DNA of 64,000 nucleotides from a virus. The translations under genes and the position numbers were made by a program. Positions 5,318 through 25,166 of this stretch are shown here, piece after piece (position 1 is the stretch's first letter; the number at the start of each line of letters is the position of its first letter). The stretch lies in IMG/VR virus record IMGVR_UViG_3300017751_000001. One strand, written 5' to 3'. The notes below the pieces were generated by a model, which made no database searches, was not told the DNA's origin, and saw nothing but the letters and a program-made list of their open reading frames with translations.

Positions 5318-5357
5318 ATTTACTCGTTTTCAAGTGGGGAAACAATGCATGAACTCC

Positions 5358-7238: not shown

Positions 7239-7245
7239 AACTTAT

Positions 7246-7494
7246 TCAGGGGTTTACCATAAAAAGGGGTTCTCTAGGGTCTTTCACCGCAGGGTAAAAA
7301 TAAATTACCTTTGCTCCAGGATATACCTTATCCACTTCAGACTGAACATCTTTCTTTACAGGTCTTCCTCTTTGAGGGAAGAACATTTGGAGAGATCTAG
7401 TTGACCCTCTAAAGACTAGATTAATAGTATAGTAATTTCCGTACATAGCAATTCGGTCTGCACCTTCACCTAGAAATATTTGGAAAGATTTCAT
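7246..7494 (-). CDS. Hypothetical protein, possible internal head protein
   Basis: 82-aa ORF filling the gp16-gp17 gap, with a TCTAAATA motif upstream and N-terminus MKSFQIFLGE. Confidence 0.7.
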   Translation of the reverse strand: MKSFQIFLGEGADRIAMYGNYYTINLVFRGSTRSLQMFFPQRGRPVKKDVQSEVDKVYPGAKVIYFYPAVKDPREPLFMVNP

Positions 7495-9037: not shown

Positions 9038-9045
9038 TATTTAGA
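9038..9045 (-). promoter_or_regulatory. Late promoter variant TCTAAATA
   Basis: Overlaps the gp14 stop, upstream of gp15. Confidence 0.6.
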
Positions 9046-11332
9046 CTTCCCCAAAAGGATTTCTTTCTGTAAAATCAATAATGTTGTCTGCTTCAAATTC
9101 AATCTCATCATTGGAAGCAAACTCATTGCCTTCAAAATTAGAATTGGCAGTAGCAACAGTATAACTTGCTGCCGCACCAACAATAGTTTCTCCATACTGG
9201 AAATCTCCAGTTGCATTGCCAAGTTTTAATATTCTATTACCAGAATCCCAAGAAGCAACAAGTGCGCTTGTTCCACTGGAAACTCCTCTCACAGATTCTC
9301 CAATTAGGAAATCACCAAAGAATGGATTTATAACTTCTTGGATATCTACCAATGGGGAAATCGCAGTGTAACCCGCACCTGCATTTGAGAATCTAATTTG
9401 AACGATACTAGATCCAGTGCTTACAACTGATTCTGCCTGTGCATTTTTAATTAGATCTGAGGTATTACTGGACTGAGGAACAAACACGGAAGTGATCCCT
9501 ACAGTTGGGGTAAAGTTGTATCCAAATCCAGCGGTATCGATTCCTACTGATCCAAGGACACCAGTAGATACTATAGCAGTAGCAATAGCTACTGATGTTG
9601 GTTTGCCTCCCCTAAAGGTAATATTTGGAGGAGTAGTGTATCCAGTTCCTGGGTTAATTAATAGAACTCTATCAATAGCCTTATTGGAAACGCCAGTCCT
9701 GCTCGTCATAATAGCAACTGCAGTTGCCTGTTGTCCAAGATCTGGTTTCTCAATAGTCATTAATGGATTAGAAACATATCCACTACCACCGTAAACAATT
9801 TGCAGTCCAGACACCTCTCTGTCCGCATTTATAGAGGCATATACTTCTGGATATTCATTATTGAGGTTCTCAACAAACTGAGATGTCTTGGATGTTGGTG
9901 TATCTATTTCTTGTTCTGATGTTGTTGTTGGAACAAGAGCTTCACTGGCAGTTCTAAACGAAGTATCCCCAGTAAGATTGAGAGTCACATGATCTAGATA
10001 TCCAATATATCCATCTTTGATTGTATCTAGTTTGCCTAGACCAGAAGCATCCGCACCATAATGTAGTTGGTTGTTCGCAAAGAACATGATTGGGTCTGCA
10101 TTACTATACTCAGATCCAGGATTACCATTCACACAGAGTTTAGCATTAGAACCATGTTGTTCAATTCTAATGAAGTTCCATGCATTCAATGTAAGTGGAT
10201 TTGGATTTTCAATGGCAGTAGATCCAGAAGCAAAAACTACAGTTCCAGAATCTCTATGGTATACTTTGATTCTGTCAGACCACAAAATAACTCCACCATA
10301 ACTTGGATTTGGAGTAAATGTAGTTGGATAAAACCACATACTAAAAGACAATCTCCCATCTTCAGTATCTCTAGAGTCAATATTTGTTGGGAACTCAAAT
10401 CTTGACTGTTCCGTATCCTGAGTATTGTCGTGATATAAGGAGTTATTTCCAAACTTTGTTTCTGTTGCTACCGTTCTGTTTGGCGGTGTAAAAGTTACTT
10501 GTGGAATCTGAATATAATTTGTTCCACCAAAATGCAAATTGACTGTTTTTACACGACCATTGACCGCAGTTGCAATACCAGTGGCTTGATTTCCTCTGGT
10601 TGGTTTTGAAACATATACTGATGGTGTTGATTTATAATTACCATCATTAAATAATTGAATATACTGTACCGACTTTGTTCCAAAAATTGTAGACGCAAGA
10701 GATACCGATGCAGTTGCATTACCATAAGTATCCTTAGCCAACTGAAGGGATATAAATTGACCACCCATACCAATTGGTTCCATGACTTCATCGCCATTGA
10801 CACCAGCAAGAGTATCTGGAAGATCAATGATCTCATCTTCATATTCAAAGATCTCGCATCTCAATTCATACATGTAAAGATCATTGAGTTGATAGAAAGG
10901 AACTTTCGTCTCTACAAACTTAATTTCAAACAATGCGTTGTCTAGAGGGAGATAGATTAAATCTCCTTCTTGAGGTCTAGTTGCAACTTTAATTTCATCT
11001 TCTGGCCACAACTTCAATAGAGGAGATATAAAATCATCATATCTTTCTTTAGATATTACTAATTGTATCTCGTCTTGTGATCTAACTCCAAATTTTGATA
11101 GAATTTCTGATGGACTTCCAAATCCATCAAAGTTAACCAAGTAAGCTTCGAGTCTAAAACTATCATCAAACCTAGATGCAGTTATTTCTTTAATAACTGT
11201 TTGCTCATTAACAATCCTCCTAGGCATGTACAAGACATCCTGACCGAACATTTTTAGATGTTCGTTAACCAAGTCCTGAACCAATCTCTGTTCGCTTGGT
11301 GAACCGTGGAGAAAAAATGGATTTAAGGGCAT
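9041..11332 (-). CDS. gp14: Neck protein, enlarged by an internal LamG/ConA-like domain
   Basis: N-terminal gp14 domain (EQRLVQDLVNEHLKMFG, EGDLIYLPL, FYQL..LYMYELRCEIFEY) and C-terminal IIDFTERNPFGE, enclosing ~500 extra aa. Confidence 0.93.
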   Translation of the reverse strand: MPLNPFFLHGSPSEQRLVQDLVNEHLKMFGQDVLYMPRRIVNEQTVIKEITASRFDDSFRLEAYLVNFDGFGSPSEILSKFGVRSQDEIQLVISKERYDDFISPLLKLWPEDEIKVATRPQEGDLIYLPLDNALFEIKFVETKVPFYQLNDLYMYELRCEIFEYEDEIIDLPDTLAGVNGDEVMEPIGMGGQFISLQLAKDTYGNATASVSLASTIFGTKSVQYIQLFNDGNYKSTPSVYVSKPTRGNQATGIATAVNGRVKTVNLHFGGTNYIQIPQVTFTPPNRTVATETKFGNNSLYHDNTQDTEQSRFEFPTNIDSRDTEDGRLSFSMWFYPTTFTPNPSYGGVILWSDRIKVYHRDSGTVVFASGSTAIENPNPLTLNAWNFIRIEQHGSNAKLCVNGNPGSEYSNADPIMFFANNQLHYGADASGLGKLDTIKDGYIGYLDHVTLNLTGDTSFRTASEALVPTTTSEQEIDTPTSKTSQFVENLNNEYPEVYASINADREVSGLQIVYGGSGYVSNPLMTIEKPDLGQQATAVAIMTSRTGVSNKAIDRVLLINPGTGYTTPPNITFRGGKPTSVAIATAIVSTGVLGSVGIDTAGFGYNFTPTVGITSVFVPQSSNTSDLIKNAQAESVVSTGSSIVQIRFSNAGAGYTAISPLVDIQEVINPFFGDFLIGESVRGVSSGTSALVASWDSGNRILKLGNATGDFQYGETIVGAAASYTVATANSNFEGNEFASNDEIEFEADNIIDFTERNPFGEV

Positions 11333-12150
11333 TATCCTATCATATCTAGGGGTGGCATGGCATATTCAGTTATCAACTTTTGTTCATGATCTTCTAATTC
11401 TCGTTGAGCGTCATCAAATAGTTGTCTACCGTTCATCTCAAGTCCACCAGGAAGCTTAACTCCTTGGAACTTAATTAGGTTTTGTCCCCATTGTCTTTTA
11501 ATTAGAGATGTTGTATACCTCTTAATCCATAGATCATTATATACAGCAGTTTCACTTTCTGGATCTACAACTCTATAACAATCTAATATTAGAAAATGAT
11601 CTTCTGTGAGTTCTTTTAGATTTATATCCATGTATAATCTACTGTTCTTTTTGTTAAATCTTATTTGGACTTCTGGATTAAGAAGAAAATCTATAGTCTC
11701 CAAGTATGATTTTGTTTGACTATAGTTCAATAAATCTATTGCGCCGTAGTAGTATAAATCATTAAGGAAGAGTTGATATTTTATATTGAACATCCCCGCC
11801 GATAAGGTGGATGAGTCCATTTTAAATATCTTATTGACTCCAATAATAGTGTCTGGTAATGGAAGGTAGTTAGCTTGTTCTGTATAATCTGCAGAAGAAA
11901 TCCCGCCAAAAGTATCAGTAACAGTTGTTGTTTGAGCAATTCCAACCATAGCAGTTCTTTCTGCCTCGGTCAACTTATGTTTTAAAAATACTCTATCTAT
12001 TCCCTCACCATGTCTTTCATGATATAATTGGAGTGCATCGTCTATCAAGTCTTCGATTTGATCATCATCGACATTGACTTCCAATACTGGCTTTCCGAGT
12101 TTCCTGAGGCAATACTGCTTCAATGCTTCTCTACTGGAGGGCTTAGCCAT
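11332..12150 (-). CDS. gp13: Neck protein
   Basis: LKQYCLRKLGKPVLEVNVDDDQIEDLIDDA and KRQWGQNLIKFQGVKLPGG motifs. Confidence 0.97.
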   Translation of the reverse strand: MAKPSSREALKQYCLRKLGKPVLEVNVDDDQIEDLIDDALQLYHERHGEGIDRVFLKHKLTEAERTAMVGIAQTTTVTDTFGGISSADYTEQANYLPLPDTIIGVNKIFKMDSSTLSAGMFNIKYQLFLNDLYYYGAIDLLNYSQTKSYLETIDFLLNPEVQIRFNKKNSRLYMDINLKELTEDHFLILDCYRVVDPESETAVYNDLWIKRYTTSLIKRQWGQNLIKFQGVKLPGGLEMNGRQLFDDAQRELEDHEQKLITEYAMPPLDMIG

Positions 12151-12176
12151 TCCTAATAATCATAGGGTTCTCAACA

Positions 12177-12184
12177 TATTTATA
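12177..12184 (-). promoter_or_regulatory. T4-type late promoter TATAAATA
   Basis: Exact consensus 27 nt upstream of the gp13 ATG. Confidence 0.8.
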
Positions 12185-12188
12185 TCTC

Positions 12189-12896
12189 ATGGAAAAGTAC
12201 TTAATAAATGAAATCGAAACGTTTGCAGTCAATGATGAATTGGATGCAAGAGTAGAGTTAATGGGATGGGAAGAAAAACCAATCGTATACATCGATAATT
12301 TTTATAAAAATCCCGATCAAGTTAGAGATTTGGCTCTAAGAATCCCTCCAACTTTAAATAGAAGAATTTGTGGAGGAGTGCCAGGTGGTAGAGTTAGTGC
12401 AAATTTTGATCTTGATCATTTAGTTCCAATCTGGACTGACATAGCCAAATCAGTTTATGGATTGACAAAAGAGGAAGAAGAACGATTTATCTGTGGATGC
12501 AAACAACTTACATTCTCGGTAAATGTAACTGCATCAGATCAAGCACTTATTCCACACGTAGATTCTCCTATAGATAGTAAAAATTTAGTTAGGGGTTGGG
12601 CAGGTGTAATTTATTTAAACACGCCAGAAGAATGTCATGGTGGCACTGGATTTTATACTTATAAGGGAATGAGTTGTGTTGATGTATACCAATCTGGAAT
12701 CTGGAAAGAGGACACCGTAAGAGATAGTGTTGGTCCTTGGGAACTTGTTCACTTAGCAGAAATGAAATACAATAGATTGATTGTATATCCAGATAATTTT
12801 CTTCATGGTGTATATCAACATCCAGGTCACTTTGATCAACAGGTGTATAGACTCGCTCAATCAATATTTCTACCTATTCCAACGATAGTATACTGA
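12189..12896 (+). CDS. 2OG-Fe(II) oxygenase-like protein (DUF6445-like)
   Basis: IDNFYKNPDQVR, PHVD (HxD), WAGVIYLN, GGTGFY and NRLIVY..FLHG. Paralogue of 21950..22594. Confidence 0.75.
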   Translation: MEKYLINEIETFAVNDELDARVELMGWEEKPIVYIDNFYKNPDQVRDLALRIPPTLNRRICGGVPGGRVSANFDLDHLVPIWTDIAKSVYGLTKEEEERFICGCKQLTFSVNVTASDQALIPHVDSPIDSKNLVRGWAGVIYLNTPEECHGGTGFYTYKGMSCVDVYQSGIWKEDTVRDSVGPWELVHLAEMKYNRLIVYPDNFLHGVYQHPGHFDQQVYRLAQSIFLPIPTIVY

Positions 12897-13699
12897 TGAT
12901 TTTAATTACTGGATATAAAGGGTTTATTGGATCTCACTTTCAAAACTATTTTGAAACTGAAGGAGAACATGATGTTATTGGAATTGATGTCGATAACGCA
13001 TGGAAATTTCTGTCCAAATTTAATGGATGGGAAAATGTAGACTTAATAATTCATAATGGAGCAATCTCATCTACAACAGAAAAAAACTGGGTAAAGATTG
13101 CACATTACAATCAATCTTTTACTGCTCACCTATTTTCACATGCAATTGAACATAAAATTCCTATAAAGTATGCATCCTCGGCATCTGTGTATGGTAATCA
13201 AACAAGAGAATGTAGGAAGATCAATCCACTGAATCAATATGCAATTTCAAAACTAATCATAGATTATTACGTATTGGACAATATAGATCGGTTTGAAAGT
13301 ATCCAAGGATTTAGATATTTTAATGTATACGGAACTGGAGAAGATCATAAGGGAGACCAAGCAAGTCCAGTCTCAAAGTTTACCAAACAGATCAAAGAGA
13401 CTGGGAAACTTAAATTGTTTGAAGGATCGGATAATTTTTATAGGGACTTTGTATGTGTAGATGATATAGTCAATATTGTCATGAATAATGACGCTCCCAG
13501 TGGAATCTATGATATTGGAACTGGCAAACCAATGTCATTCCAGAGAGTTGCAGAGTTAGTTGCTAAAAAAGAAGGGGGAGAAATCGAAATGATTCCTTTC
13601 CCAGATCACCTAAAAGGTAAGTATCAAGATTATACCTGTGCAGATATGAAATGGTTAAACTATAGACTCAAGACGTTAGAGGAATATCTTGCACCATAA
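12896..13699 (+). CDS. hldD: ADP-L-glycero-D-manno-heptose 6-epimerase
   Basis: Extended SDR: TGYKGFIGS, HNGAISSTTE, ASSASVYG, YxxxK (YAISK) and RYFNVYG..EDHKGDQAS, matching HldD/RfaD. Confidence 0.9.
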   Translation: MILITGYKGFIGSHFQNYFETEGEHDVIGIDVDNAWKFLSKFNGWENVDLIIHNGAISSTTEKNWVKIAHYNQSFTAHLFSHAIEHKIPIKYASSASVYGNQTRECRKINPLNQYAISKLIIDYYVLDNIDRFESIQGFRYFNVYGTGEDHKGDQASPVSKFTKQIKETGKLKLFEGSDNFYRDFVCVDDIVNIVMNNDAPSGIYDIGTGKPMSFQRVAELVAKKEGGEIEMIPFPDHLKGKYQDYTCADMKWLNYRLKTLEEYLAP

Positions 13700-14276
13700 A
13701 GTTAATAAAATTTGTAGCGATATATTTTTCTTCGGAAATGGGAGCATTTCCTTTATGTTTGAACAAATAATTGCATGGAAATAATAGTACTTTCCCCTTC
13801 TCTGGTCTTACTGCTATATTCCAATCTGGAAATTCTGTTTCTCCACCTTCCTCAACATCATTGAGATACATAATGCAAGCAAATATTCTACTTACTGTAC
13901 CAAATGCATGTTGGTCCACATGAGTCTTAAATATTCCTTCGTTCTTGGGATATACCCTAACGCAATAATCATTTAGAGTCATGCTATCTTCTGGAACTGG
14001 ATATCTAGAACCTGCTTCCCTAAAAGCAGACATAGTGATCTCTGTCATCTTGTCTGAGATAGGTGCTTCTGGAGGGACTAGAGTCTGAATAGCATTTTTA
14101 AAATCTTTTTTAACACTAGGTCCAATGTTTTTTCCGTTTTTTGTGCTATAAACGCACCCATCACTTTGAAGATGTTTGTTCGATTTAAACCATTCCAATA
14201 TTTCATCACAGGTTTTGTCTGGGATGTGATTTTTCAAAACCACAATTAGATCTGTTATTTTTTCAGCTCTCATCAA
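13668..14276 (-). CDS. 2OG-Fe(II) oxygenase (prolyl-hydroxylase-like)
   Basis: HVD triad start, IMYLNDVEEGGETEF, PEKGKVLLFP and distal His (FKHKG). Confidence 0.88.
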   Translation of the reverse strand: MMRAEKITDLIVVLKNHIPDKTCDEILEWFKSNKHLQSDGCVYSTKNGKNIGPSVKKDFKNAIQTLVPPEAPISDKMTEITMSAFREAGSRYPVPEDSMTLNDYCVRVYPKNEGIFKTHVDQHAFGTVSRIFACIMYLNDVEEGGETEFPDWNIAVRPEKGKVLLFPCNYLFKHKGNAPISEEKYIATNFINFMVQDIPLTS

Positions 14277-14653
14277 TCTCCAGATTCAATTCTATTACTA
14301 TCTTCATCAAAATGTTCTGTACTAAATTCAAATAATTCAGTATCGGAAAGACCATACATTCTATGTTTCATTCCAATAGGAACATGAAACTTATCTCCAG
14401 TTTCTAGTACAGATACATTAGCGACTTCAATATTGTCATCCCACCCATAGTAGATTTTAATTTTTCCACTTTGAACATAGAAAACTTCGTCTTTCTTTTT
14501 ATGAAAGTGCCAAGAACATTGTTTTCCTTTTGCAATGAAAAGGAGTTTGCCACAATATTGTTCTGAGTTAACTATCCATTTTTCATATCCCCATCCTTTG
14601 GACACGAACTTAATTGGTTCTGCTGCTCTAGGTATCGAAGAATTCATCGGCAC
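14273..14653 (-). CDS. Cupin-fold protein, putative sugar(-phosphate) isomerase
   Basis: KGWGYEKW, cupin motif 1 SWHFHKKKDEVFYVQSG and motif 2 GDKFHVPIGMKHRM. Confidence 0.8.
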   Translation of the reverse strand: MPMNSSIPRAAEPIKFVSKGWGYEKWIVNSEQYCGKLLFIAKGKQCSWHFHKKKDEVFYVQSGKIKIYYGWDDNIEVANVSVLETGDKFHVPIGMKHRMYGLSDTELFEFSTEHFDEDSNRIESGD

Positions 14654-14954
14654 TTACTCCCTTGTCGTCAATGTAATAGTCAGCTGAAGGTTTTCCTAAG
14701 AAAAGATCGTGAAACATACATCCCCATTCTAACAGTTGTTTGTGAGTGAAGTCGTAATACTTTTCCTTAGCTTGTTCTCGATCATTATTAAATGTACCCA
14801 TACCTCTAGCGGTATGGTAGATTATCTGATGTCCTTTAATATATAGATCATTTATTTTAGAGATCCTTTCTGGGATAGGTACAGCTTCAGTATATCTGCC
14901 TTCTCCTTTTCCAGGAATACAGATAGTGCCGTCTATATCTACATTATATCTCAT
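14628..14954 (-). CDS. Minimal HAD-superfamily phosphatase
   Basis: Motif I VDIDGT, motif II YHTARG, motif III/IV GKPSADYYIDDK; 108 aa, capless. Confidence 0.82.
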   Translation of the reverse strand: MRYNVDIDGTICIPGKGEGRYTEAVPIPERISKINDLYIKGHQIIYHTARGMGTFNNDREQAKEKYYDFTHKQLLEWGCMFHDLFLGKPSADYYIDDKGVSADEFFDT

Positions 14955-16078
14955 TCGGGTCCTAAGTATAAGTTTTTAAGTGGATATTTTTTCATGGAAC
15001 CAGTTTTGGAATAATATTGAGCTTTAGATACTCCAATACTAATTCCAGCATCACTACTAATAGGTTCCACATATAGTTTAACATCTTTTGGCAACTTATC
15101 CAAATACCAATAATTTGCAGAACAGTTTAATGCACATCCACCAGTTAAAATAATATTTTTACGTTTCGATATTGCAAGAGCGTCCAATAAAATTTTTAAC
15201 ATATGAGTCTGAAAATCTTCCTGAAGTCTCCAAGCAAGGTTAGCTAATTTTTCAAAGTGATTCTCAGTATTTTCAGCTTCTCTATGATGAGGTAAGTAAT
15301 CATATGGAATAAAATTACATCCATACTTAGACCTATAAAAAAGATTTGAATCTACATTAAATCCATCAGAAAGGAAAGATCTAATATTGGGATCTTCTTT
15401 ACCGTATGAAGCAAGACCCATTACTATTCCAGCCCCAAGTCCACCAAAACCCATATATGAGGATACTGCGGAGTACACCATACCAATTCCACATGTCCAC
15501 TCACCTTTATGTTCAGATTCATCACAACTATCATAAGAGGGTGTAGACATCCCTCCTAAAGAATTCATATTACATGGATAAGATGCATCGAATATGGAAA
15601 CAACCTCATGCCTATCTTCTGCAGGAGTAAGGAAGTTTCCCATACCATCAACCACAACTACAACTGCATCATCAAATCCAGAATTATAGAATCCACAATA
15701 AGCATGAAATAAGTGATGATCAAAAAACTTTTCAAATTTTTCTTTGACTATTTCATACTTAAAAGAGTTTTGTTCATGTGGTAGAAGTTTTAATGATTTA
15801 GAAACATACATTATTAACATATCACTACTACGATCTAATGTACTTACTCCCAGCTTGTCTTTAGATATTAATGCAGATGTTGCTACTTCATATTTTTCAA
15901 TCTCATCCATGGTAAGTCCACCAAGAACCATGTTACATGCATGAAATGGATCGTTATCATATTTTAATCTAGACAATCTTTCTTCTTCCAGGAAAAGTTC
16001 AATGTCCCCATCTTCAGAAAGAACTGATACTGAGGAGTTATGGGATAAGTGAAATCCTACTTGTTTTTTCAATTTCAT
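14951..16078 (-). CDS. NodU/CmcH-type carbamoyltransferase, N-terminal (Kae1-like) domain only
   Basis: EEERLSRLK, HHLFHAY, VVDGMG, MGLASYG, LTGGCALN and EPISSDAG. Ends at LYLGPE with no C-terminal domain. Confidence 0.85.
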   Translation of the reverse strand: MKLKKQVGFHLSHNSSVSVLSEDGDIELFLEEERLSRLKYDNDPFHACNMVLGGLTMDEIEKYEVATSALISKDKLGVSTLDRSSDMLIMYVSKSLKLLPHEQNSFKYEIVKEKFEKFFDHHLFHAYCGFYNSGFDDAVVVVVDGMGNFLTPAEDRHEVVSIFDASYPCNMNSLGGMSTPSYDSCDESEHKGEWTCGIGMVYSAVSSYMGFGGLGAGIVMGLASYGKEDPNIRSFLSDGFNVDSNLFYRSKYGCNFIPYDYLPHHREAENTENHFEKLANLAWRLQEDFQTHMLKILLDALAISKRKNIILTGGCALNCSANYWYLDKLPKDVKLYVEPISSDAGISIGVSKAQYYSKTGSMKKYPLKNLYLGPE

Positions 16079-17193
16079 TTTGGACCTAAATACAAATTTT
16101 TGAGAGGATGTTTTTTGTATGATTCAGTTTCAGTGTAATACAAATATTTTGCAAGTCCCAAAGAAACTCCAGCATCATTACTAATAGGTTCTACATATAG
16201 TTTGACATCTTTTGGTAACTTGTCTAAGTACCAATAATTTGCAACACAATTTAGAGCGCATCCACCAGTAAGAACAAGATTTCGCATATTTGTTCTTTCA
16301 AGTGCATCGGTGAGAAGAAATAACATATGAGTCTGAAAATCTTCTTGAAGTCTCCAAGCAAGATTTGCAAGTTTTTGGAAATGTTTTTCTATGTTTACTG
16401 CTTCTACATGAGGAGGGAGATAATCATATGGAATAAAGTTTGCACCAAATCTGGTTCTGTAAAATAAATTCGAGTCTACAGTATATCCATCATCTAAAAT
16501 GAAAGATTTAATATTGGGATCTTCTTTACCGTATGGAGCAAGACCCATTACTTTTCCAGCCCCAAGTCCACCAAAACCAAGATAAGACGATACCGCAGAA
16601 TATGCCATACCGATTCCGCAGTTCCATCCACCTTTATGTTCTGCAGAATCACAAGCCATGTAAGTTGGTGTAGACATTCCAACAATTGGAACCATTATAT
16701 TTGGATAACCACCAATGAAAGTAGTAGCAACTTCTACATATCTATCATTATTCCTTAGTGTATTTCCCATAGCATCAACTACTACAATCGCTGCATCATC
16801 AAATCCAGAATTATAGAATCCAGAATAAGCATGTAAAAGATGATGCTCGTTATATATTACATTTTGTGCGTGCTTATGACTATGAGCACACCACTTATCA
16901 AAATCTTTATAAGTTAGTATCTTAGAGAGTGTTCTATTGACTGTCTCTGAAGCAATTTGTAGAGCGTTTCCTCCTTTAGGATCCTCATCTAAAAGTCCAG
17001 TCATTCCAAGATTGTATGTATTGGAATAATCTTCAGAATCTATTCCCCTAAAATGTTTGTCCAATACATGAAATGGGTCTCCATCATGTTTGATTCTGGA
17101 ATATCTCTCTTCTTCAATGAATATCTCTGTTTCTCCTTGATCGACAATACAGAGTGAGGAATCATGGGAAAGATTAAGTCCAACTTGTTTCAT
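16075..17193 (-). CDS. NodU/CmcH-type carbamoyltransferase, N-terminal (Kae1-like) domain only; tandem paralogue
   Basis: EEERYSRIK, HHLLHAY, GKVMGLAPYG, LTGGCALNCVAN and EPISNDAG. Ends at LYLGPK. Long stretches of near DNA identity with 14951..16078. Confidence 0.87.
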   Translation of the reverse strand: MKQVGLNLSHDSSLCIVDQGETEIFIEEERYSRIKHDGDPFHVLDKHFRGIDSEDYSNTYNLGMTGLLDEDPKGGNALQIASETVNRTLSKILTYKDFDKWCAHSHKHAQNVIYNEHHLLHAYSGFYNSGFDDAAIVVVDAMGNTLRNNDRYVEVATTFIGGYPNIMVPIVGMSTPTYMACDSAEHKGGWNCGIGMAYSAVSSYLGFGGLGAGKVMGLAPYGKEDPNIKSFILDDGYTVDSNLFYRTRFGANFIPYDYLPPHVEAVNIEKHFQKLANLAWRLQEDFQTHMLFLLTDALERTNMRNLVLTGGCALNCVANYWYLDKLPKDVKLYVEPISNDAGVSLGLAKYLYYTETESYKKHPLKNLYLGPK

Positions 17194-17735
17194 ACTGGTC
17201 CTCCTGGAGGCTGATCATAATAAATGTTACCTGATATAGTTATGCCTTCATTCCCAGGGGGAACAAAATGTTCAATGAATGACGGGAAAATTATAATATT
17301 TTCAGAAGAAACTTTTGGCATATACTCTATAGGAAAAGCATGACCTAGATATCCCCATTGATTCATTTGATTATGTCTACTTGGGGAAAGAAAAACAGTC
17401 TTAGATTCCTCAACATCCACATAAATTACAAAACTCCATTGAGATCCAGAATGAATATGTGGATCTTGCCAGTCTGTTTTCTCATACTTGTTACGCCAAA
17501 CTGAACCAATATAAAATGGTTTCTCTGTATATTGACCTATACACTCCCAAAGAATCCTGCCAAGATAATTATATGACTCTTGAGTAAGTTCATCTGCCTC
17601 CATTGTAGTTGGAGTACGAGAAATAAAAGTTGGTTTGTATTCTGGTTCTTCTTTAAACTCTAATTTACTAATATCAATTTTTTCGATAAAGAAAGGCATC
17701 CAGAATACTGGATTGGGTTGTTTAAAGTTGTCCAT
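17190..17735 (-). CDS. Putative 2OG-Fe(II) oxygenase (TIGR02466-like)
   Basis: QDPHIHSGSQWSFVIYV, IIIFPSFIEHFV and ITISGNI. Confidence 0.8.
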   Translation of the reverse strand: MDNFKQPNPVFWMPFFIEKIDISKLEFKEEPEYKPTFISRTPTTMEADELTQESYNYLGRILWECIGQYTEKPFYIGSVWRNKYEKTDWQDPHIHSGSQWSFVIYVDVEESKTVFLSPSRHNQMNQWGYLGHAFPIEYMPKVSSENIIIFPSFIEHFVPPGNEGITISGNIYYDQPPGGPV

Positions 17736-18498
17736 TATAAATTCTCATAATGTCATCTTTGGTTAGTTTATATGTTCCTGAGTTTTCTACGGAAATAGAA
17801 GCTGCCATATTTGCAAAATTAATAGAATTCTGCATATCTTTTGTGCGAATAAATTCAACCACTAAGGCAGAGAGGAAGGTATCACCAGCTCCACATACAT
17901 CAAATACATTGACCTTTCTTGGTGTGAAATTAATACCCCTCCACCTACATCCATTTGATCCTAAAGTTACGATTAAATTAGTATCATGAGGCATAAATTC
18001 ACGATCAAGTAAATCATATTCTTTTTTGTTTATCTTGAAGAAAACATTAGGTTGTTGAAATAATTTAGTTTTCTTTGTGTCAATAAAAATTGGTCCTTTA
18101 AAATATGTGCAGATAATACGTAATGCTTGATCTGTAAGAAAACCTTTATCATAGTCTGATATTACTAGTGCATCATATTTACTATGCATAAATGCCATTC
18201 TTACCTGAGGAGCACTTAATGGAGTTACCTCGGGAGTTGTATCAACTCTGAGTAATTGATAATTACTTTTTCTATCTACAAATCGAGTTTTCTTGATTGT
18301 TTCTTTTTGCGTAATTAGATTTGTTCGGACACCAAAAGATCTCAAATTATCATTGACATTTGATGCCATTCCAGGTGTTACTTCTGTGGATGTCTTGTCC
18401 AGAACAGGAATAGGTCCTTCTGGGTTTAACCTAGAACAATCTCCATAGATGTATTCATCATCACATGAATCTCCAATAACTAATATATTACATTCCAT
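17722..18498 (-). CDS. hldA: D-glycero-D-manno-heptose-7-phosphate kinase (stand-alone HldE kinase domain, PfkB family)
   Basis: VIGD..DEYIYGDCSRLNPEGPIPV, ISDYDKG and DVCGAGDTF match the HldE/RfaE domain I. Confidence 0.88.
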   Translation of the reverse strand: MECNILVIGDSCDDEYIYGDCSRLNPEGPIPVLDKTSTEVTPGMASNVNDNLRSFGVRTNLITQKETIKKTRFVDRKSNYQLLRVDTTPEVTPLSAPQVRMAFMHSKYDALVISDYDKGFLTDQALRIICTYFKGPIFIDTKKTKLFQQPNVFFKINKKEYDLLDREFMPHDTNLIVTLGSNGCRWRGINFTPRKVNVFDVCGAGDTFLSALVVEFIRTKDMQNSINFANMAASISVENSGTYKLTKDDIMRIYNGQL

Positions 18499-18905
18499 CA
18501 GTCCAAGTTGTTAATTAGAATTTTTTTGATAATTGAGCTCGAAGAATAATCTCCAACTCTTGGTAAGAATCTAACTTCTTTGACAATATCTTTTCCAACA
18601 ACATCACCATTTTCCCAGTCATTTCCTAAGAGGAGAATATCTGGTTTATAAACTCTGATAAGATCTTCCAATCCCTTTCGATCATTGAAATAGTGGACAA
18701 CATCAATATACTTGATTGATTCGAGCATTGATATTCTATAACAAAGATCATTTATGGGTTTGGTTTGACCTTTATCTTTTTTAATCTTCACATCACTATC
18801 TGTAGCGACAATGACACGATCACCCAGAGATCTCGCTACTCTGAATAGTTCTATGTGTCCAGGATGTAAAATATCAAACGTGCCATTTACAAATACAGTC
18901 TTCAT
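18498..18905 (-). CDS. hldC: Heptose-1-phosphate nucleotidyltransferase (stand-alone HldE domain II)
   Basis: NGTFDILHPGH (HxGH), GDRVIVATDSD, KGQTKPIN and YSSSSII; translationally coupled to the kinase. Confidence 0.85.
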   Translation of the reverse strand: MKTVFVNGTFDILHPGHIELFRVARSLGDRVIVATDSDVKIKKDKGQTKPINDLCYRISMLESIKYIDVVHYFNDRKGLEDLIRVYKPDILLLGNDWENGDVVGKDIVKEVRFLPRVGDYSSSSIIKKILINNLD

Positions 18906-20701
18906 TAATTTTTAGCCTCAATCATCAACCCATGTTCGGGTAAGTAGAGATATTCGATATCAGATTCAGAAAGGGTTCTGCAAGCATCATCAATTGTTTC
19001 AACGAGAGGCTCGCCCCCCAAATTAAAAGAAGTGTTGAAGACAATAGGACAACCAGTAGCTTCATAAAATTCTTTAATCAAATCATAATAATTTTTATTT
19101 TGTTCTTCGGTGACTGTTTGAATCCTACAAGTACCATCAACATGAATGATTGCAGGAATTTTCTCTTCAATCCCATCCTGACATTTAACAGCATACATCA
19201 TGAATGGGGTTTCGTCCATACCACGAAGATCAAACCACTCATGAACATGTTCTTTAAGGATTGATCCAGCAAAAGGTCGGAAGTATTCACGATTTTTTAC
19301 TTTATTAACAAAATCCTTTCCATCTGGATCACGAGGATCATAAAGAATAGACCTGTTACCTAGTGCTCTAGGACCAGCCTCGGATCTACCTTGGAAGATA
19401 GCAACAATATTTTTATTGGTAATTAAATCAATTACATCTTTGTTTGTGGCTTCAAAAACTCTTGTAGATCCATACTTATCTGCAGTATCTACAATTTGAT
19501 CAGTCGAATACATATATTCAAATCCAGTATAAAGATCTTTTAGGGGTTCGCGGACTTGTGCATCTTTAGTTACTCTATGGTATTGGAGAAGTGCAGCTCC
19601 AATTGCAGTACCAGCATCATTACTTACAGGTTCTACAAATAGATTAATACCTTCATCTTTTAGTTGTTCAAGATACCAATAGTTAGCAACACAATTTAGT
19701 GCATATCCACCAGTCAATACTACATTAGTTTGACCAGTCATATTTACAACTTTACGAATTAGGTCCAGAACCATTTGTTGAGACTCTACTTGAATAGCGT
19801 ATGCCATGTCTCTACGGTTCTGTAAGAGGGTCATATCACCTTCAAAGTCATAGTCAGTCTTAAGGTATTTAAACCGCCCCTGATTGACTAGGGCACCGTT
19901 AGGATACGTTGGTGTAATGAGGTCTCTATTGGATGTTTTCCACTCAGAGGCCCCGTTATAATCCGTATACACATCTGGAATATCGTCATTGGGGGTTCCA
20001 TATGGGAATAGACCCATAGTTTTACCAGCTTCAATAGGAGACCACCCACAATACTGTGTTACAGCTTCATATGCCTTAGTGATACCAGCAGTATCATCAA
20101 GAATCATTTCATGAGTTCCTTCCTCACCTTCCCTTTCACTACTAAACTCTTCAAATCGAATAGAGTTCCATGGACCTCTTCCGCCTTGATGTTTGTAGAT
20201 TGTCTTGAATTCTGATGGATACTCACAATTGAACATGGATTCTAGTTCCCATGTCATTTCATTTTCCCCATTAATATTCATGGGAATGAAAGTACCTGCA
20301 CCATCAACAACAACAGCTGCAGCACGACTAAATCCAGACCTATAGAAGGCACATGCTGCGTGAAGTTTATGGTGAGTTGAACTCAAATCAATAACTTGAG
20401 GGTGTTGATTTGGATTTTCTTTCCTATCAATTAGTCCTAACTTTCTTGCCAATGCAACATAGATTGGATCTCCACTAAAATCACAATGCCCAGCCTCACT
20501 TAGTGGTTGAGTATGTGCGATAACGAGATAATCAAGAGTATCCGTGAAGTCCAAAATTCTAGTCATACAAGCATATGGACCTCCATCATACTTGTTCCTA
20601 GAAAGTCGTTCTTCTTCTATTGATAAGACAATTTCACCATCTTTTAGTAGACAGAGCCCTGAGTTGTGACCTCGGGCAATAGCCGCAATCCATTGTGACA
20701 T
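18905..20701 (-). CDS. Full-length NodU/CmcH/TobZ-family O-carbamoyltransferase
   Basis: N-domain EEERLSRNK, HHKLHA, GKTMGL, GGYALNCVAN. C-domain EAGPRALGNRSIL, VKNREYFRPFA, HVDGTCRIQTV, NTSFNLGGEP. Confidence 0.95.
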   Translation of the reverse strand: MSQWIAAIARGHNSGLCLLKDGEIVLSIEEERLSRNKYDGGPYACMTRILDFTDTLDYLVIAHTQPLSEAGHCDFSGDPIYVALARKLGLIDRKENPNQHPQVIDLSSTHHKLHAACAFYRSGFSRAAAVVVDGAGTFIPMNINGENEMTWELESMFNCEYPSEFKTIYKHQGGRGPWNSIRFEEFSSEREGEEGTHEMILDDTAGITKAYEAVTQYCGWSPIEAGKTMGLFPYGTPNDDIPDVYTDYNGASEWKTSNRDLITPTYPNGALVNQGRFKYLKTDYDFEGDMTLLQNRRDMAYAIQVESQQMVLDLIRKVVNMTGQTNVVLTGGYALNCVANYWYLEQLKDEGINLFVEPVSNDAGTAIGAALLQYHRVTKDAQVREPLKDLYTGFEYMYSTDQIVDTADKYGSTRVFEATNKDVIDLITNKNIVAIFQGRSEAGPRALGNRSILYDPRDPDGKDFVNKVKNREYFRPFAGSILKEHVHEWFDLRGMDETPFMMYAVKCQDGIEEKIPAIIHVDGTCRIQTVTEEQNKNYYDLIKEFYEATGCPIVFNTSFNLGGEPLVETIDDACRTLSESDIEYLYLPEHGLMIEAKN

Positions 20702-20710
20702 TTAAATACC

Positions 20711-21886
20711 TCAATTAATATCAGTTTTTAGTAGATTCTTTACTTCGTTTTTGAAACCTACTTTTGGTTTTTTAGGTTTTTCTACAATATTTGCAGGTGG
20801 TTGATTCCACTGAGGTTGTGGCATCAATGCAGCACTTCCTGGCAACACTGCAGTATTTCCTGGTGCAATTGCAGGAGTTGTTGAAGTTCCAGGCGGGCAT
20901 GTAGGACATTCTGTGCTTTGTGGAGGAGTATAAGTTCCTTTAAATGAAACGGGTTTACCTAAATGTTTTCTAGCAGAACGCAAAATAGATTTGACTTGTT
21001 CCGCAGACATTTCCATGGATTGATCATTATACCGATCAACAGTTTCATCCATAGTTAATCTAATTGGAGAATATTTCCTTCTGTCTAAACCAATATCAAT
21101 TAGATCAAAGTTACTATCTTCTGGATAAGAAATATTAACTGGATAAGTAGATCCAATAACTACAGTTGCTTTTTTGTCAAGAGACTTGCAAATATGTTGA
21201 CCGATACTATCTACACCTATAAAGTGATCAGCAACATCTATAATAGCAGCCCATACTCTAATGTCCTCAATTTGAGGTCTTGCAATTTTATATTTTGACT
21301 TCTCTTCATTTTCTTCTACTGGAAACTGGAGTTCAGACATTACAATGATACCATAATCTTTTTTAAGATCATTGATAATATCTACAGTGTTTACGAGAGA
21401 CATACTTCTTGACGAAGCATCTGCGATAAACTCTCCAACTTGCTGAACACCTCTACCGAAAGGCTGGATTACTACGACTTTATCTTTACCACTTACTGAT
21501 TTCACTTCTTGAATCATATTGTAACCAGCAATAACCTCCATCTTAGTGAGATTGAGAGTTGGTTTGGGAAGTTCTCTGGGTTCATCTAGACCATTGATTT
21601 CCATATCAAAAGCCTGTGTCAAACTACATTTTTGATTGTAGTAATGCCACATTCTATATGGTTCTGGTGAAACACAATCTCTATGTTTCAAATGTTCCTG
21701 AAACAAATTCTTGTGCCACATATCATAAACTTTACCATCTAAAGTTGGATGACCTTTAAAAAAGTCAGTTCCTCCTTCAGCAACGATGATAAAATCATCA
21801 TGTGTTTCTGCATATTTTTCAAATGCAGGAATGGAGCAAAGCACTCTACCGGCTCCTCCATTGACAAAAAATGCTTTGGATCTCAT
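20711..21886 (-). CDS. GT-B fold glycosyltransferase, family 9 (heptosyltransferase)-like
   Basis: N-terminal GGAGRVLCSIPA, VVVIQPFG, and GT9-like signature WAAIIDVADHFIGVDSIGQHICKSLDKKATVVIGST. ATG at 21886 preferred over the TTG at 21901. Confidence 0.72.
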   Translation of the reverse strand: MRSKAFFVNGGAGRVLCSIPAFEKYAETHDDFIIVAEGGTDFFKGHPTLDGKVYDMWHKNLFQEHLKHRDCVSPEPYRMWHYYNQKCSLTQAFDMEINGLDEPRELPKPTLNLTKMEVIAGYNMIQEVKSVSGKDKVVVIQPFGRGVQQVGEFIADASSRSMSLVNTVDIINDLKKDYGIIVMSELQFPVEENEEKSKYKIARPQIEDIRVWAAIIDVADHFIGVDSIGQHICKSLDKKATVVIGSTYPVNISYPEDSNFDLIDIGLDRRKYSPIRLTMDETVDRYNDQSMEMSAEQVKSILRSARKHLGKPVSFKGTYTPPQSTECPTCPPGTSTTPAIAPGNTAVLPGSAALMPQPQWNQPPANIVEKPKKPKVGFKNEVKNLLKTDIN

Positions 21887-21932
21887 ATAAAAAAACTCCA
21901 AACAGTATAATAAAGAATGATCTATTCTGATG

Positions 21933-21940
21933 TATTTAGT
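21933..21940 (-). promoter_or_regulatory. Late promoter variant ACTAAATA heading the glycosylation operon
   Basis: Intergenic, 47 nt upstream of the GT9-like ATG; identical to the motifs upstream of gp8 and gp19. Confidence 0.65.
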
Positions 21941-21949
21941 CTACCAAAA

Positions 21950-22594
21950 TTACATGAATAATACTTGTACAAGTCTTGGAAACTCAGTAAACATACCCCT
22001 TTTAAGAACTGCTCCATGCATGTGATCACATTCATATAACACCATCCTATTGTATTTCATTTTAGATTCATATTCTAATCTTGGTACGGCTGATGGATCG
22101 TCTGGCATCCAAGCATAAAAATTAGTTCCTCCATCACATTCCTGATCTTTATTGAGGTAGATTACTGCAGCCCACTTATAATTAGTGGAATCTTTATGGA
22201 ATGTATATGTATGTTTTTTCTCATTGAATCTAGTTTCAATATCATTTCCATTAGTTACATTTGCCATAAATTTAGTATCTCTCCAAAAAGTATCATCGTA
22301 CTCTGGATTCCAAAAATCAAATTGACATGCTTTTTCAAAAACTGATTTTAAATTCTCATCAAATCCTTCTATATTTTCAATAACTCTTGATCCTATAAGA
22401 TTTCCCGTATATTTCTTATCGGTCTTGCGAGTACCATTAAGAGCAATTTTTCGTACTTCATCGGGATTTTTATAGAAATCATCTATAGTAATTACATATC
22501 TCCATACATGCCCTAGGTCATTTTTAGCATGATCATATATTTTTTTTACTGTCGTCTTACGAGATTCATTTAGTTCAAACATATTTCTTCCCAT
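21950..22594 (-). CDS. 2OG-Fe(II) oxygenase-like protein (DUF6445-like)
   Basis: IDDFYKNPDEVR, FHKD, WAAVIYLN, GGTNFY and NRMVLY..HMHG. Paralogue of 12189..12896. Alternative ATG at 22582. Confidence 0.75.
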   Translation of the reverse strand: MGRNMFELNESRKTTVKKIYDHAKNDLGHVWRYVITIDDFYKNPDEVRKIALNGTRKTDKKYTGNLIGSRVIENIEGFDENLKSVFEKACQFDFWNPEYDDTFWRDTKFMANVTNGNDIETRFNEKKHTYTFHKDSTNYKWAAVIYLNKDQECDGGTNFYAWMPDDPSAVPRLEYESKMKYNRMVLYECDHMHGAVLKRGMFTEFPRLVQVLFM

Positions 22595-22595
22595 T

Positions 22596-22617
22596 AAAAA
22601 AGGGAGCCTTAGCTCCC
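22596..22617 (-). terminator. Rho-independent terminator
   Basis: Minus strand GGGAGC-TAAG-GCTCCC followed by TTTTTT, downstream of the chaperone gene. Confidence 0.85.
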
Positions 22618-22644: not shown

Positions 22645-23412
22645 TCAACCAATAACACCACTACTTGGGGGCGCCCAATCGGCAGATGCATCTGCAGGTT
22701 CTTCTGGGTCAGATGGAGGATTAGTAAAGTATGGTACGTCAGGGAACATATAGTATGCCATATTTGGAGAAACACCAGCTGCAGCTAATTCAGCGGGAAG
22801 ATCTCTCAACTTCTGACGATATGCTTTCCATATAGTCTTCATGTCCTCGGGCATGTCCTCTGCAATTTGACCATCACTACCACTGAGAATTCCATTTCTA
22901 TGATCTCTGATCTCATCCCAAGTTAGATCATCGGCTCTACCAATAAGTTTCTCATTAACACTGAATGCATGTACTGTTGGAGCTCCATCAACGATTCTTA
23001 CCGATGCACCATCATAAAGATCTTCGATAAACAAATGTTGATTATACTTTAATTGTCTGTACCCCTGAGCAGTCATATCGGGACAATCTGGATGAGCAAC
23101 GTCATCCTCCATGTCTCGGCTTTCTTCTTTTTCATCGATGACTGGTCCTCTCAGTTGGCAGATGAGTGGATACTCGGTGCAATCCACTTCAAACATTTGA
23201 GTTACATCGGCTGGAATTGGTCTTCCATCAGCCATGTCATCTTCGGTCAGGGGCCCATGTACTTCGGTGCCATCAGCACCAATTTGTAGCCAAATTTTAT
23301 CGGGACCATCATAAGTAACGGCTCTTGTTTTGCCTTCTGAATATGAGTGATCTCTTAGGAAATCGTTTGGAACGGGCATGTTCCAATCGTGGGAAATAAT
23401 TTCTGTTGCCAT
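22645..23412 (-). CDS. Tail fibre assembly chaperone-like protein
   Basis: C-terminal WDEIRDHRNGILSGSD...WKAYRQKLRDLP matches the phage tail assembly chaperone motif (R..R...L..SD...W..YRQ.LRDLP). Follows the Cys-rich triplet. Confidence 0.75.
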   Translation of the reverse strand: MATEIISHDWNMPVPNDFLRDHSYSEGKTRAVTYDGPDKIWLQIGADGTEVHGPLTEDDMADGRPIPADVTQMFEVDCTEYPLICQLRGPVIDEKEESRDMEDDVAHPDCPDMTAQGYRQLKYNQHLFIEDLYDGASVRIVDGAPTVHAFSVNEKLIGRADDLTWDEIRDHRNGILSGSDGQIAEDMPEDMKTIWKAYRQKLRDLPAELAAAGVSPNMAYYMFPDVPYFTNPPSDPEEPADASADWAPPSSGVIG

Positions 23413-23463: not shown

Positions 23464-23488
23464 AAAAAAAAGACCCCTTTCGAGGTCT
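23464..23488 (-). terminator. Rho-independent terminator
   Basis: Minus strand AGACCTC-GAAA-GGGGTCT (GNRA loop, one G-U pair) followed by a T tract. Confidence 0.85.
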
Positions 23489-24326: not shown

Positions 24327-24346
24327 TTGGAGTCCTATTTAATAGT

Positions 24347-24354
24347 TATTTATC
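24347..24354 (-). promoter_or_regulatory. Late promoter GATAAATA
   Basis: NATAAATA motif 21 nt upstream of paralogue 3. Confidence 0.65.
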
Positions 24355-25153: not shown

Positions 25154-25166
25154 TGATTCCCCTTGA

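Follow-up and report, generated by a model that had tools for sequence, protein, structure and literature searches.

A 64,000-nucleotide stretch of viral DNA from IMG/VR (record IMGVR_UViG_3300017751_000001), here called the window, carries an island of 13 genes (positions 12189-22594) that joins enzymes for the supply of nucleotide-activated heptose to a glycosyltransferase (GT) of the GT9 fold and to O-carbamoyltransferases (CTs) of the NodU/TobZ family. This enzymology had been proposed in an initial annotation of the same DNA, and it holds up on domain and fold evidence. It is probable that the phage encodes the pathway, and the reading we prefer, to which we give even chances, is that the island serves the late decoration of a fibre-associated virion protein with a carbamoylated heptose. 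The window is part of a 74-kb contig with an estimated completeness of ~32%. By its sequence, the source is a fragment of a T4-like cyanomyovirus near Sf-FS3 and S-SSM7. The island DNA is 85% identical to that of Synechococcus phage Sf-FS3 (host WH8102), the identity of island proteins with their S-SSM7 (genus Lipsvirus) counterparts is 59-75%, and domain searches of the window placed the T4-type genes gp13, gp14 and gp15, a terminase gene and fibre genes around the island.

The GT9-fold glycosyltransferase

The 391-aa product of the first gene of the operon has no Pfam match, so the cut-off of PF01075 is not reached, and NCBIfam gave a 37-residue match only (TIGR02201, 19 bits vs a cut-off of 170). 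The GT9-like transferase named in the initial annotation is instead upheld by its fold and by a D/H motif, which agree. A profile search showed that the protein belongs to a family of 521 clusters at 50% identity (phrog_8954), and an AlphaFold2 model built from 68 diverse family members reached a pLDDT of 88.8 and a pTM of 0.85. This model replaced a first one from a shallow alignment (all rows at least 64% identical; pLDDT 61), in which the N domain was unfolded and the C domain already pointed to GT9. The highest VIA Z scores were obtained with the GT9 structure 3tov (22.6), WaaF (20.1), TibC (19.4) and WaaC (18.6); plant NDH subunits, which have a GT9-like fold, scored ~18.5, and GT-B folds outside GT9 scored ~12, i.e. 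~7-10 units below the top heptosyltransferase matches. Foldseek gave 9e-11. We are confident, from the model, in the assignment of the GT9 (heptosyltransferase-like) fold.

The conserved residues point the same way. Searched against PDB sequences, the family profile matched WaaF and WaaC only (E 0.01-0.03), across a D-S-x-G-x-H motif. All 68 diverse members keep D226 and H231, which align with NDSGLMH of WaaF and VDTGLSH of WaaC, so that the nucleotide-heptose motif of GT9, D-(S/T)-G-x-x-H (the region of WaaC Asp261), is present. A near-invariant Arg14 lies opposite the catalytic Asp13 of WaaC, in a part where the N-terminal hidden Markov model alignment is weak and low-scoring. Homologues of the same phage family in Vibrio and Aeromonas pass or approach PF01075 (25.4 bits vs a cut-off of 22 for the Vibrio protein). 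The top characterised matches, WaaC, WaaF and TibC, are all ADP-heptose transferases, which supports a heptose donor; by analogy, we infer that this donor is ADP-heptose.

The protein consists of a GT-B core (residues 1-320), a Pro-rich linker with a CxxC motif and a conserved basic C-terminal helix (378-386). The tail of the cyanophage clade (~residues 325-391; 20711-20870, minus strand) comprises the segment TECPTCPPG, a Pro/Ala-rich linker and the basic helix GFKxEIKNLLK; such a tail is missing from most members of the family, which are about 300-330 aa long. Of the residues beyond the core, C330 alone is nearly invariant in this clade. The helix was not among the segments of highest hydrophobic moment when it was examined as an amphipathic anchor. 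The tail may be a docking or membrane-targeting device, or may itself be a substrate of the transferase or of a prolyl 4-hydroxylase (P4H).

Heptose supply

The HldA-, HldC- and HldD-like proteins have the pathway families TIGR02198, TIGR02199 and TIGR02197, respectively, as their best NCBIfam matches. Two canonical enzymes are missing. For the SIS-fold isomerase GmhA, the source record gave no match to TIGR00441, and a search with PF13580 found nothing in the complete genomes of Sf-FS3, S-SSM7 and P-SSM2. Canonical GmhB was not found in the island either, where there is instead a 108-aa capless haloacid dehalogenase (HAD) protein akin to the capsule phosphatases EcbF/BcbF (PDB matches 9iqw, a capsule biosynthesis protein, 1e-8, and 1xpj); we propose, from these similarities, that this mini-HAD is a GmhB substitute. 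The description of the pathway as self-contained thus needs qualification. The HldA-, HldC- and HldD-like proteins, the mini-HAD, the GT and the CT are all there, but with GmhA and GmhB missing, and the cupin and the mini-HAD having to replace them, the island falls short of being strictly self-contained when canonical genes are counted.

The cupin probably takes the role of GmhA as an isomerase of sedoheptulose-7-phosphate and D-glycero-D-manno-heptose-7-phosphate. Its PDB matches are L-ribose isomerase 3ww1 (5.6e-4, with HFHxxKxE in common), D-lyxose isomerase 2y0o and mannose-6-phosphate isomerase 7zvm, and the nearest Atlas clusters belong to the Lyx_isomer and MannoseP_isomer families. 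Its best named relatives are thus aldose-ketose isomerases of lyxo- or manno-configured sugars. The substitution is chemically sensible, since isomerization of sedoheptulose-7-phosphate is the seven-carbon analogue of the conversion of fructose-6-phosphate into mannose-6-phosphate. Alternatively, the cupin may be a nucleoside diphosphate-sugar epimerase of the WbuC or Cap5F type.

Within the phage collection, an HldA-like kinase accompanies this GT in all cyanophages that have it (Sf-FS3, S-SSM7, S-SSM6a, S-CAM1, S-CAM3, P-SSM2, P-SSM5 and single-cell virus contigs), and HldC likewise always goes with the GT in cyanophages. The kinase occurs without this GT in S-T4, Sf-CH5, Sf-CH8, S-SM2 and P-TIM68; in S-T4, the sole such case inspected, its cluster is of another type, close to hli genes and containing GT2-type transferases. 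Both types of cyanophage heptose cluster keep HldC, HldA, the mini-HAD and the cupin as one set. The HldD-like gene lies on the strand opposite to the cassette also in S-SSM7, P-SSM2 and S-CAM1.

A further phage contig (L018) has a GT9-like gene (5352-6275) among fn3/Collar tail genes, together with radical-SAM/SPASM and spermine-synthase-like genes. The same contig holds a canonical heptose set at 12041-14275, with an SIS-fold GmhA, an HldC-HAD fusion and an epimerase, which links the GT family to heptose independently. No cupin is visible in this contig beside its GmhA, which fits the two as alternatives.

Carbamoyltransferases and oxygenases

The 598-aa CT has both the Kae1-like domain and the YrdC-like domain, which forms carbamoyl-AMP, and it matches PDB proteins over both (7xb6, 2e-53; TobZ, 1.4e-47; NovN; GdmN). 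Two further CT genes encode half proteins, in which Pfam found no C-terminal YrdC-like domain and which are 34-35% identical to the Kae1-like N half of the complete enzyme. All three proteins share H110, H111, H114, D133 and D362 without variation; this His/Asp set presumably corresponds to the metal ligands of TobZ. In the synthesis of N6-threonylcarbamoyladenosine (t6A), TsaD uses threonylcarbamoyl-AMP made by TsaC. By analogy, the Kae1-only proteins could use carbamoyl-AMP made in trans and carbamoylate further positions. The complete CT directly follows the GT in every case examined (S-SSM7, S-CAM1, P-SSM2 and two metagenomic contigs, L015 and L016), and some metagenomic T4-like phages have the GT-CT pair with no heptose genes between the CT and gp13.

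A second clade of cyanophage CTs, ~40% identical, was observed in S-RIM44, S-CAM8 and S-SSM5, where GT9 and heptose genes are absent; the acceptor of this clade hence cannot be a phage-made heptose; a host sugar, DNA or a protein that has been hydroxylated could serve instead. The S-CAM8 gene adjoins a Gly_rich_2 gene, the coordinates suggest the same for S-SSM5, and the S-RIM44 gene lies beside a thymidylate synthase gene.

The island encodes four 2-oxoglutarate (2OG)/DUF6445-type oxygenases (one PF13640, one PF13759 and two DUF6445). The oxygenase of the operon's last gene is most similar, as judged from sequence matches, to characterised P4Hs, a protein hydroxylase family: its best PDB matches are the Bacillus anthracis enzyme (3itq/5hv0, ~5e-14), human C-P4H alpha-2 and the P4Hs of algae and of chlorovirus PBCV-1. 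The PHROG matches of the same protein include families that bear the names 'DNA endonuclease', 'DNA endonuclease V' and 'ferrochelatase', and genes of relatives that bear these names beside 2OG oxygenases may consequently be mislabelled. For the DUF6445 protein that opens the divergent pair, a sequence search found no PDB relative.

Organization of the island and its promoter

All 13 open reading frames were present at the coordinates first given for them. The ten tightly coupled minus-strand genes (21886 to 13668) with the domains first assigned to them were confirmed by reading frames, junctions and agreeing Pfam and NCBIfam matches, and in the case of the GT by fold (Table 1). Their successive junctions measure -4, -26, -4, -4, -4, -14, -1, -1 and +9 nt. 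The operon is flanked on one side by a divergent plus-strand pair (DUF6445 and HldD) and on the other by a DUF6445/2OG gene.

Table 1. Features of the island and of its surroundings (positions are those of the window unless another genome is named; minus-strand genes are read from the higher to the lower position)
Feature	Position	Strand	Evidence or remark
gp13 and gp14 neck genes	9041-12150		
DUF6445 (2OG-oxygenase-like), 235 aa, first of divergent pair	12189-12896	+	PF20043 2.1e-13; phrog_1644 5.8e-41
HldD-like 6-epimerase (short-chain dehydrogenase/reductase), 267 aa, shortened	12896-13699	+	TIGR02197 2.5e-67; PF01370 1.1e-24
P4H-like 2OG-Fe(II) oxygenase, 202 aa, last gene of operon	13668-14276	-	PF13640 1.8e-11
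Metal-binding cupin, 126 aa	14273-14653	-	Cupin_2 8e-9; Lyx_isomer 0.008
Capless mini-HAD phosphatase, 108 aa	14628-14954	-	TIGR01689 (EcbF/BcbF) 8.7e-8
Half CT 2, Kae1-like domain only, 375 aa	14951-16078	-	Carbam_trans_N 4.4e-16
Half CT 1, Kae1-like domain only, 372 aa	16075-17193	-	Carbam_trans_N 1.8e-23
2OG-Fe(II) oxygenase (PF13759/TIGR02466 type), 181 aa	17190-17735	-	PF13759 2.8e-8; phrog_81 1.4e-28
HldA-like heptose-7-phosphate 1-kinase (PfkB), 258 aa	17722-18498	-	TIGR02198 (rfaE domain I) 4.5e-39
HldC-like heptose-1-phosphate adenylyltransferase, 135 aa	18498-18905	-	TIGR02199 (rfaE domain II) 5.4e-33; PF01467 2.7e-18
Complete NodU/CmcH/TobZ O-carbamoyltransferase, 598 aa	18905-20701	-	Carbam_trans_C 1.8e-61; Carbam_trans_N 2.3e-27
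GT9-fold glycosyltransferase, 391 aa, first gene of operon	20711-21886	-	predicted structure
Late-type promoter box ACTAAATA	21933-21940	-	47 nt upstream of GT ATG at 21886
DUF6445/2OG-oxygenase-like, 214 aa, upstream of operon	21950-22594	-	PF20043 7.6e-7; PF13640 1.4e-5; phrog_1644 5.6e-29
Fibre-assembly-chaperone-like gene	22645-23412		
Three Cys/Gly-rich paralogues, 260-266 aa, Gly_rich_2 family	23529-25949	-	phrog_4205
Fibre, 1477 aa	26019-30452		
Second-clade CT, S-RIM44 (NC_047734)	193924-195509		
Second-clade CT, S-CAM8	31504-33114		
Second-clade CT, S-SSM5	32552-34141		

The late-type motif reported ahead of the operon is likewise in place as ACTAAATA. About 14 virion genes of the minus strand have a box of the form (A/C/T)-TAAATA 18-47 nt ahead of their start; each of these boxes is in a short intergenic spacer and on the coding strand. 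The raw count of CTAAATA in the window is not above chance (9 observed vs 14.9 expected), so that the signal lies in the position of the boxes relative to gene starts and not in their number. A box of the virion-gene class thus precedes the operon; late control, as the initial annotation had it, is suggested by this motif only. No separate late box precedes the plus-strand DUF6445/HldD pair (12189-13699). An earlier study lists orthologue groups but gives no expression class for P-SSM2 genes 307-313 (PMC7238727).

Terminator-like hairpins followed by a T-run were observed on the minus strand at 22602-22617, after the fibre-chaperone-like gene, and at 23471-23488, after the Cys/Gly-rich triplet, and they split the fibre region into separate late transcription units. 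The first of them parts the 21950-22594 gene from its upstream neighbour.

Sequences near-identical to positions 13668-21940 (81-99% of sampled 31-mers) were found in seawater and viral metagenomes from at least 10 studies (2019-2025), and these matches show that the phage bearing the island is an abundant wild population. RNA-library contigs span the GT gene, the CT gene and neighbouring virion genes; we dropped them as a sign of late expression because they give neither timing nor strand and may reflect DNA carry-over.

Tail modules and Gly_rich_2 proteins

A seven-gene core (GT9, CT, HldC, HldA, HAD, cupin and HldD) lies between fibre genes and gp13 in the genera Lipsvirus, Salacisavirus and Anaposvirus, and its order is kept across all three at 45-75% protein identity. 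Distant GT homologues (27% identity, E 2e-20), which match PF01075, occur in the tail/neck modules of unrelated phages. In a Vibrio N4-like podovirus the homologue lies between a tail fibre and a tail-tip protein, and in the Aeromonas myovirus HJ05 it is preceded by a Gly_rich_2 gene and followed by that of the sheath. Neither homologue has heptose-supply genes close by; Vibrio and Aeromonas make ADP-heptose for their own lipopolysaccharide (LPS). One metagenomic contig (L016) has the order fibre, Gly_rich_2, GT, CT and gp13. In another metagenomic T4-like phage (L012), a 312-aa GT relative (6548-7486) was observed between gp15 (tail sheath stabiliser) and gp16 (small terminase), within the most conserved T4 morphogenesis block and with no sugar genes nearby.

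The Cys/Gly-rich triplet of the window is ~10% Cys and ~17% Gly, with 20 invariant Cys; its match to PF21722 (Gly_rich_2) is weak in the window and clear in relatives. Co-occurrence of this triplet with the island, named in the initial annotation as a point to check, was seen by tblastn: all records in which the family was found (10/10) have the GT/CT cassette as well. More widely, Gly_rich_2 proteins are present in 7/7 CT-bearing and 2/8 CT-lacking cyanomyovirus genomes (Fisher one-sided 0.0056, relatedness ignored). A strict link was ruled out by Syn9 and S-SM1, which have Gly_rich_2 proteins and no CT, and the association is hence one of enrichment only.

A common gene order was seen in cyanomyoviruses, in which a tail fibre gene is followed by genes for one to three Gly_rich_2 (PF21722) proteins and then by a variable block of tailoring enzymes (examples are Syn9 gp38-39, S-SM1 SSM1_049, S-CAM8 SXCG_00049 and S-RIM44 gp167-169). 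The enzymes in such blocks include Trp halogenases, P4H-like 2OG oxygenases, DUF6445 proteins, CTs and GT9 with heptose genes. This order suggests a general region for the post-translational tailoring of fibre tips.

Proposed mechanism and acceptor

In the mechanism that we propose, the cupin would convert sedoheptulose-7-phosphate into D-glycero-D-manno-heptose-7-phosphate. By homology, the HldA-like kinase would then phosphorylate C1, the mini-HAD would remove the 7-phosphate, the HldC-like adenylyltransferase would yield ADP-D,D-heptose, and the HldD-like epimerase may give the L,D form. The GT9-fold enzyme would move the heptose onto its acceptor, and the TobZ-type CT would make carbamoyl-AMP and O-carbamoylate the sugar at a site that its family membership leaves to be presumed; the Kae1-only paralogues probably take carbamoyl-AMP in trans and so reach further hydroxyls. 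The P4H-like and DUF6445 oxygenases may hydroxylate the acceptor protein or the glycan. The prime acceptor candidates are the Gly_rich_2 Cys-rich paralogues or the 1477-aa fibre, and the host-recognition apparatus would in this way gain a coat of carbamoyl-heptose.

We consider it roughly an even matter whether the acceptor is a protein. The preference of the initial annotation for a virion protein as the putative acceptor gains from the fibre/tail synteny, the co-occurrence with Gly_rich_2 proteins, the likeness to P4H, the composition of host LPS and the lack of a known route to 5-hydroxymethylcytosine (5hmC). The GT9-like enzymes TibC and AAH are able to O-heptosylate proteins, namely adhesins. 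According to the literature, from which the heptose status of the hosts is taken, the LPS of Synechococcus WH8102 and CC9311 contains neither heptose nor 3-deoxy-D-manno-oct-2-ulosonic acid (Kdo) (PMC4515613; PMC4390846). This explains why the phage brings its own heptose supply, and it leaves the host without Kdo2-lipid A, on which GT9 enzymes canonically act.

A broader claim is possible, though we think it rather unlikely, namely that the phrog_8954 GTs are O-heptosyltransferases of tail-apparatus proteins in several unrelated phage lineages and that in cyanomyoviruses they are part of a fibre-tip tailoring system with a non-canonical ADP-heptose supply. In such a system, Gly_rich_2 Cys-rich receptor-binding proteins would be hydroxylated (by the P4H-like and DUF6445 enzymes), halogenated (by Trp halogenases, as in Syn9 and S-RIM44), heptosylated and multiply carbamoylated.

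Several observations weigh against decoration of a virion protein. Accessory genes are known to accumulate between the fibre genes and gp13 (PMC3037559), and the position of the island and its late transcription could thus be passive. The published virion proteomes (S-SM1, S-PM2 and Syn9) come from phages that lack the cassette, and the Gly_rich_2 homologue of S-SM1 is annotated as hypothetical and not as structural. Prediction of a complex between the GT core (1-325) and one of the paralogues (24353-25153) scored 0.00, which is no evidence either way. No collagen-like Gly-X-Y runs, which would be substrates of a P4H, were found in the virion proteins of the window, and the clade-specific tail of the GT could be a membrane or other docking device. 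Among nine metagenomic GT contexts that were read, two are non-structural (a glycan cluster in L017 and DNA-metabolism neighbours in L019) and two are too short to tell (L011 and L015). The co-occurrence counts are small and uncorrected for phylogeny. On the side of supply, all heptose-pathway matches fall below the NCBIfam trusted/equivalog cut-offs (for HldD, 227 bits vs 274.6), because the proteins are shortened, and the assignment of the cupin is built on weak similarity.

Alternative explanations

The classical reading of such cassettes as 'LPS genes' (PMC3037559) would have the GT act late in infection and add heptose to a glycolipid of the host outer membrane, to LPS core or to another surface glycan, with the sugar then carbamoylated; the receptor would be masked, so that progeny avoid debris or co-infecting phages are excluded. 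We regard this remodelling of the host envelope as plausible though rather unlikely, and it is the leading rival. The closest characterised relatives of the GT, WaaC and WaaF, act on LPS, and carbamoyl-heptose is known only from the LPS core of Pseudomonas, where WapO carbamoylates HepII (PMC8005017). A second type of heptose cluster (S-T4 and S-SM2), which lies near hli and away from the fibres, has several GT2-type transferases and a membrane protein and looks polysaccharide-like, and the basic C-terminal helix of the GT could be a peripheral membrane anchor. However, with Kdo and heptose missing from host LPS, the canonical acceptor is not available, and no flippase, ligase or membrane protein was found among the domain calls of the island. 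Superinfection exclusion is usually an early function, whereas the box of the operon is late-type. Further, the GT homologues of Vibrio and Aeromonas phages stand alone inside tail modules, and the cassette co-occurs with fibre-associated Gly_rich_2 proteins.

The genes might also have no macromolecular target, either as 'stuffer' DNA for headful packaging, an option raised by Sullivan et al. (PMC3037559), or as the source of a soluble carbamoylated heptose, similar to a nucleoside antibiotic or used in signalling. Heptose, carbamoyl and oxygenase chemistry does occur in natural-product pathways, and TobZ, NovN and GdmN act on small molecules. We consider this very unlikely, given the conserved order and protein identity of the seven-gene core across three genera, the near-identical DNA in marine metagenomes, the intact and translationally coupled frames, the acceptor that a GT9-fold transferase implies, and the RNA-library contigs, with their caveat of DNA carry-over.

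Also very unlikely is hypermodification of phage DNA, in which heptose and/or carbamoyl would be placed on a hydroxymethylated pyrimidine. Precedents exist in the 5-heptosyl-hmC reconstituted from a phage cluster of HAD/kinase, nucleotidyltransferase and GT-B genes (bioRxiv 10.1101/2023.12.21.572611) and in a NodU-family enzyme that carbamoylates 5hmC (PMC8670742), the island has several 2OG oxygenases and one GT homologue (L019) neighbours nuclease and exonuclease genes. Against this, three complete relatives lack every known route to 5hmC, DNA-type CTs co-occur with thymidylate-synthase homologues (PMC8670742) while the CT here always pairs with a GT9-like gene near fibres, the published heptose-DNA GT resembles T4 beta-GT, BshA and MshA and not GT9 (bioRxiv 10.1101/2023.12.21.572611), and the oxygenases of the island are of P4H, DUF6445 and PF13759 types. 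In the complete genomes of Sf-FS3, S-SSM7 and P-SSM2, which are the scope of this negative, the source genome itself being only ~32% complete, we found no ThyA-family dCMP hydroxymethylase (PF00303), no C5-methyltransferase (PF00145) and no credible TET/JBP match (PF12851; the best, at 15 bits in one genome, lies outside the island).

Relation to known systems

The gene set itself is not new, and GenBank genomes already hold the cassette. Earlier work described it under the name of cyanophage 'LPS genes', with no function known (T4-GC 302-308; Sullivan et al., 2005/2010; PMC3037559). We found no paper that proposes or tests virion heptosylation. S-SSM7 (SSSM7_119-134), P-SSM2 (PSSM2_307-314) and S-CAM1 (SXBG_00222-216) have the same order of GT9-like gene, CT, HldC, HldA, HAD and cupin, with HldD opposite, likewise beside fibre genes; in the published annotation the GT is 'hypothetical', and LPS synthesis or stuffer DNA was proposed. 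Compared with these cassettes, the island has two half CTs and four oxygenases in addition, and it has none of the denV-like, halogenase and methyltransferase inserts of S-SSM7. Later work treats the CT as an auxiliary metabolic gene (AMG) of nucleotide (pyrimidine) synthesis (PMC9146016). Some GenBank names in S-SSM7, P-SSM2, S-CAM1, S-CAM8 and Syn9 appear doubtful, such as 'phosphoheptose isomerase' for the mini-HAD, 'cysteine dioxygenase' for the cupin, 'minor coat protein' for DUF6445 and 'bifunctional HldE' for the HldC-like protein. New here are the GT9 fold, the tail-module context, the absence of GmhA and 5hmC routes in relatives, the affinities of the cupin to isomerases and of the oxygenase to P4H, and the association with Gly_rich_2 proteins.

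Decoration of a virion protein with carbamoyl-heptose would combine known kinds of system, i.e. protein heptosylation, virion glycosylation and heptose carbamoylation. TibC and AAH, which act on TibA and AIDA-I, share with the phage enzyme a GT9-like GT-B core; they use ADP-heptose and O-glycosylate an adhesin encoded next door. Superposition on TibC (Z 19.4, root-mean-square deviation 3.4 over 264 residues) covers residues 96-391 of TibC only; the phage GT lacks the ~95-residue N-terminal part and shows no four-Cys iron finger. Unlike in TibC/AAH, the phage GT has a Pro-rich tail of its own, its acceptor is a candidate only and the sugar would be carbamoylated.

The Pseudomonas inner core, with WaaC/WaaF and WapO (PA5005), the 7-O-carbamoyltransferase of HepII, is the only known biology that joins L,D-heptose, GT9 enzymes and a NodU-family CT (PMC8005017). 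Its acceptor, in contrast, is Kdo2-lipid A, which cyanobacterial hosts lack, whereas the genes of the island sit in a virion module behind a late-type promoter and, apart from the HldA-like heptose-phosphate kinase, include no heptose kinases.

Virus-encoded sugar-nucleotide and transferase genes decorate structural proteins in mycobacteriophage capsids and tails, in chlorovirus PBCV-1 and in mimivirus fibrils. These systems use hexoses or amino and deoxy sugars and GT-A or other GTs; to our knowledge, none involves heptose or carbamoyl and none is T4-like. The biosynthetic gene clusters of phage DNA that make 5-heptosyl-hmC resemble the island in that a phage HAD, kinase, nucleotidyltransferase and GT-B produce a heptose adduct, but they require 5hmC-generating enzymes and their GT is T4 beta-GT-like, not GT9-like.

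Significance

Cyanomyoviruses kill a large share of ocean Synechococcus and Prochlorococcus, and tail fibres set their host range. If a receptor-binding protein does carry carbamoyl-heptose, a protein heptosylation system would be known from a virus for the first time, as would a glycosylated T4-like virion. It would also explain the 20-year-old puzzle of the cyanophage 'LPS genes', and genes now counted as metabolic AMGs, including the CT read as pyrimidine synthesis (PMC9146016), would have to be reassigned. Should the cupin replace GmhA, it would represent a new entry point to the ADP-heptose pathway, and if the Kae1-only CTs work as proposed, they would extend the hand-over of an adenylate in trans beyond t6A synthesis.

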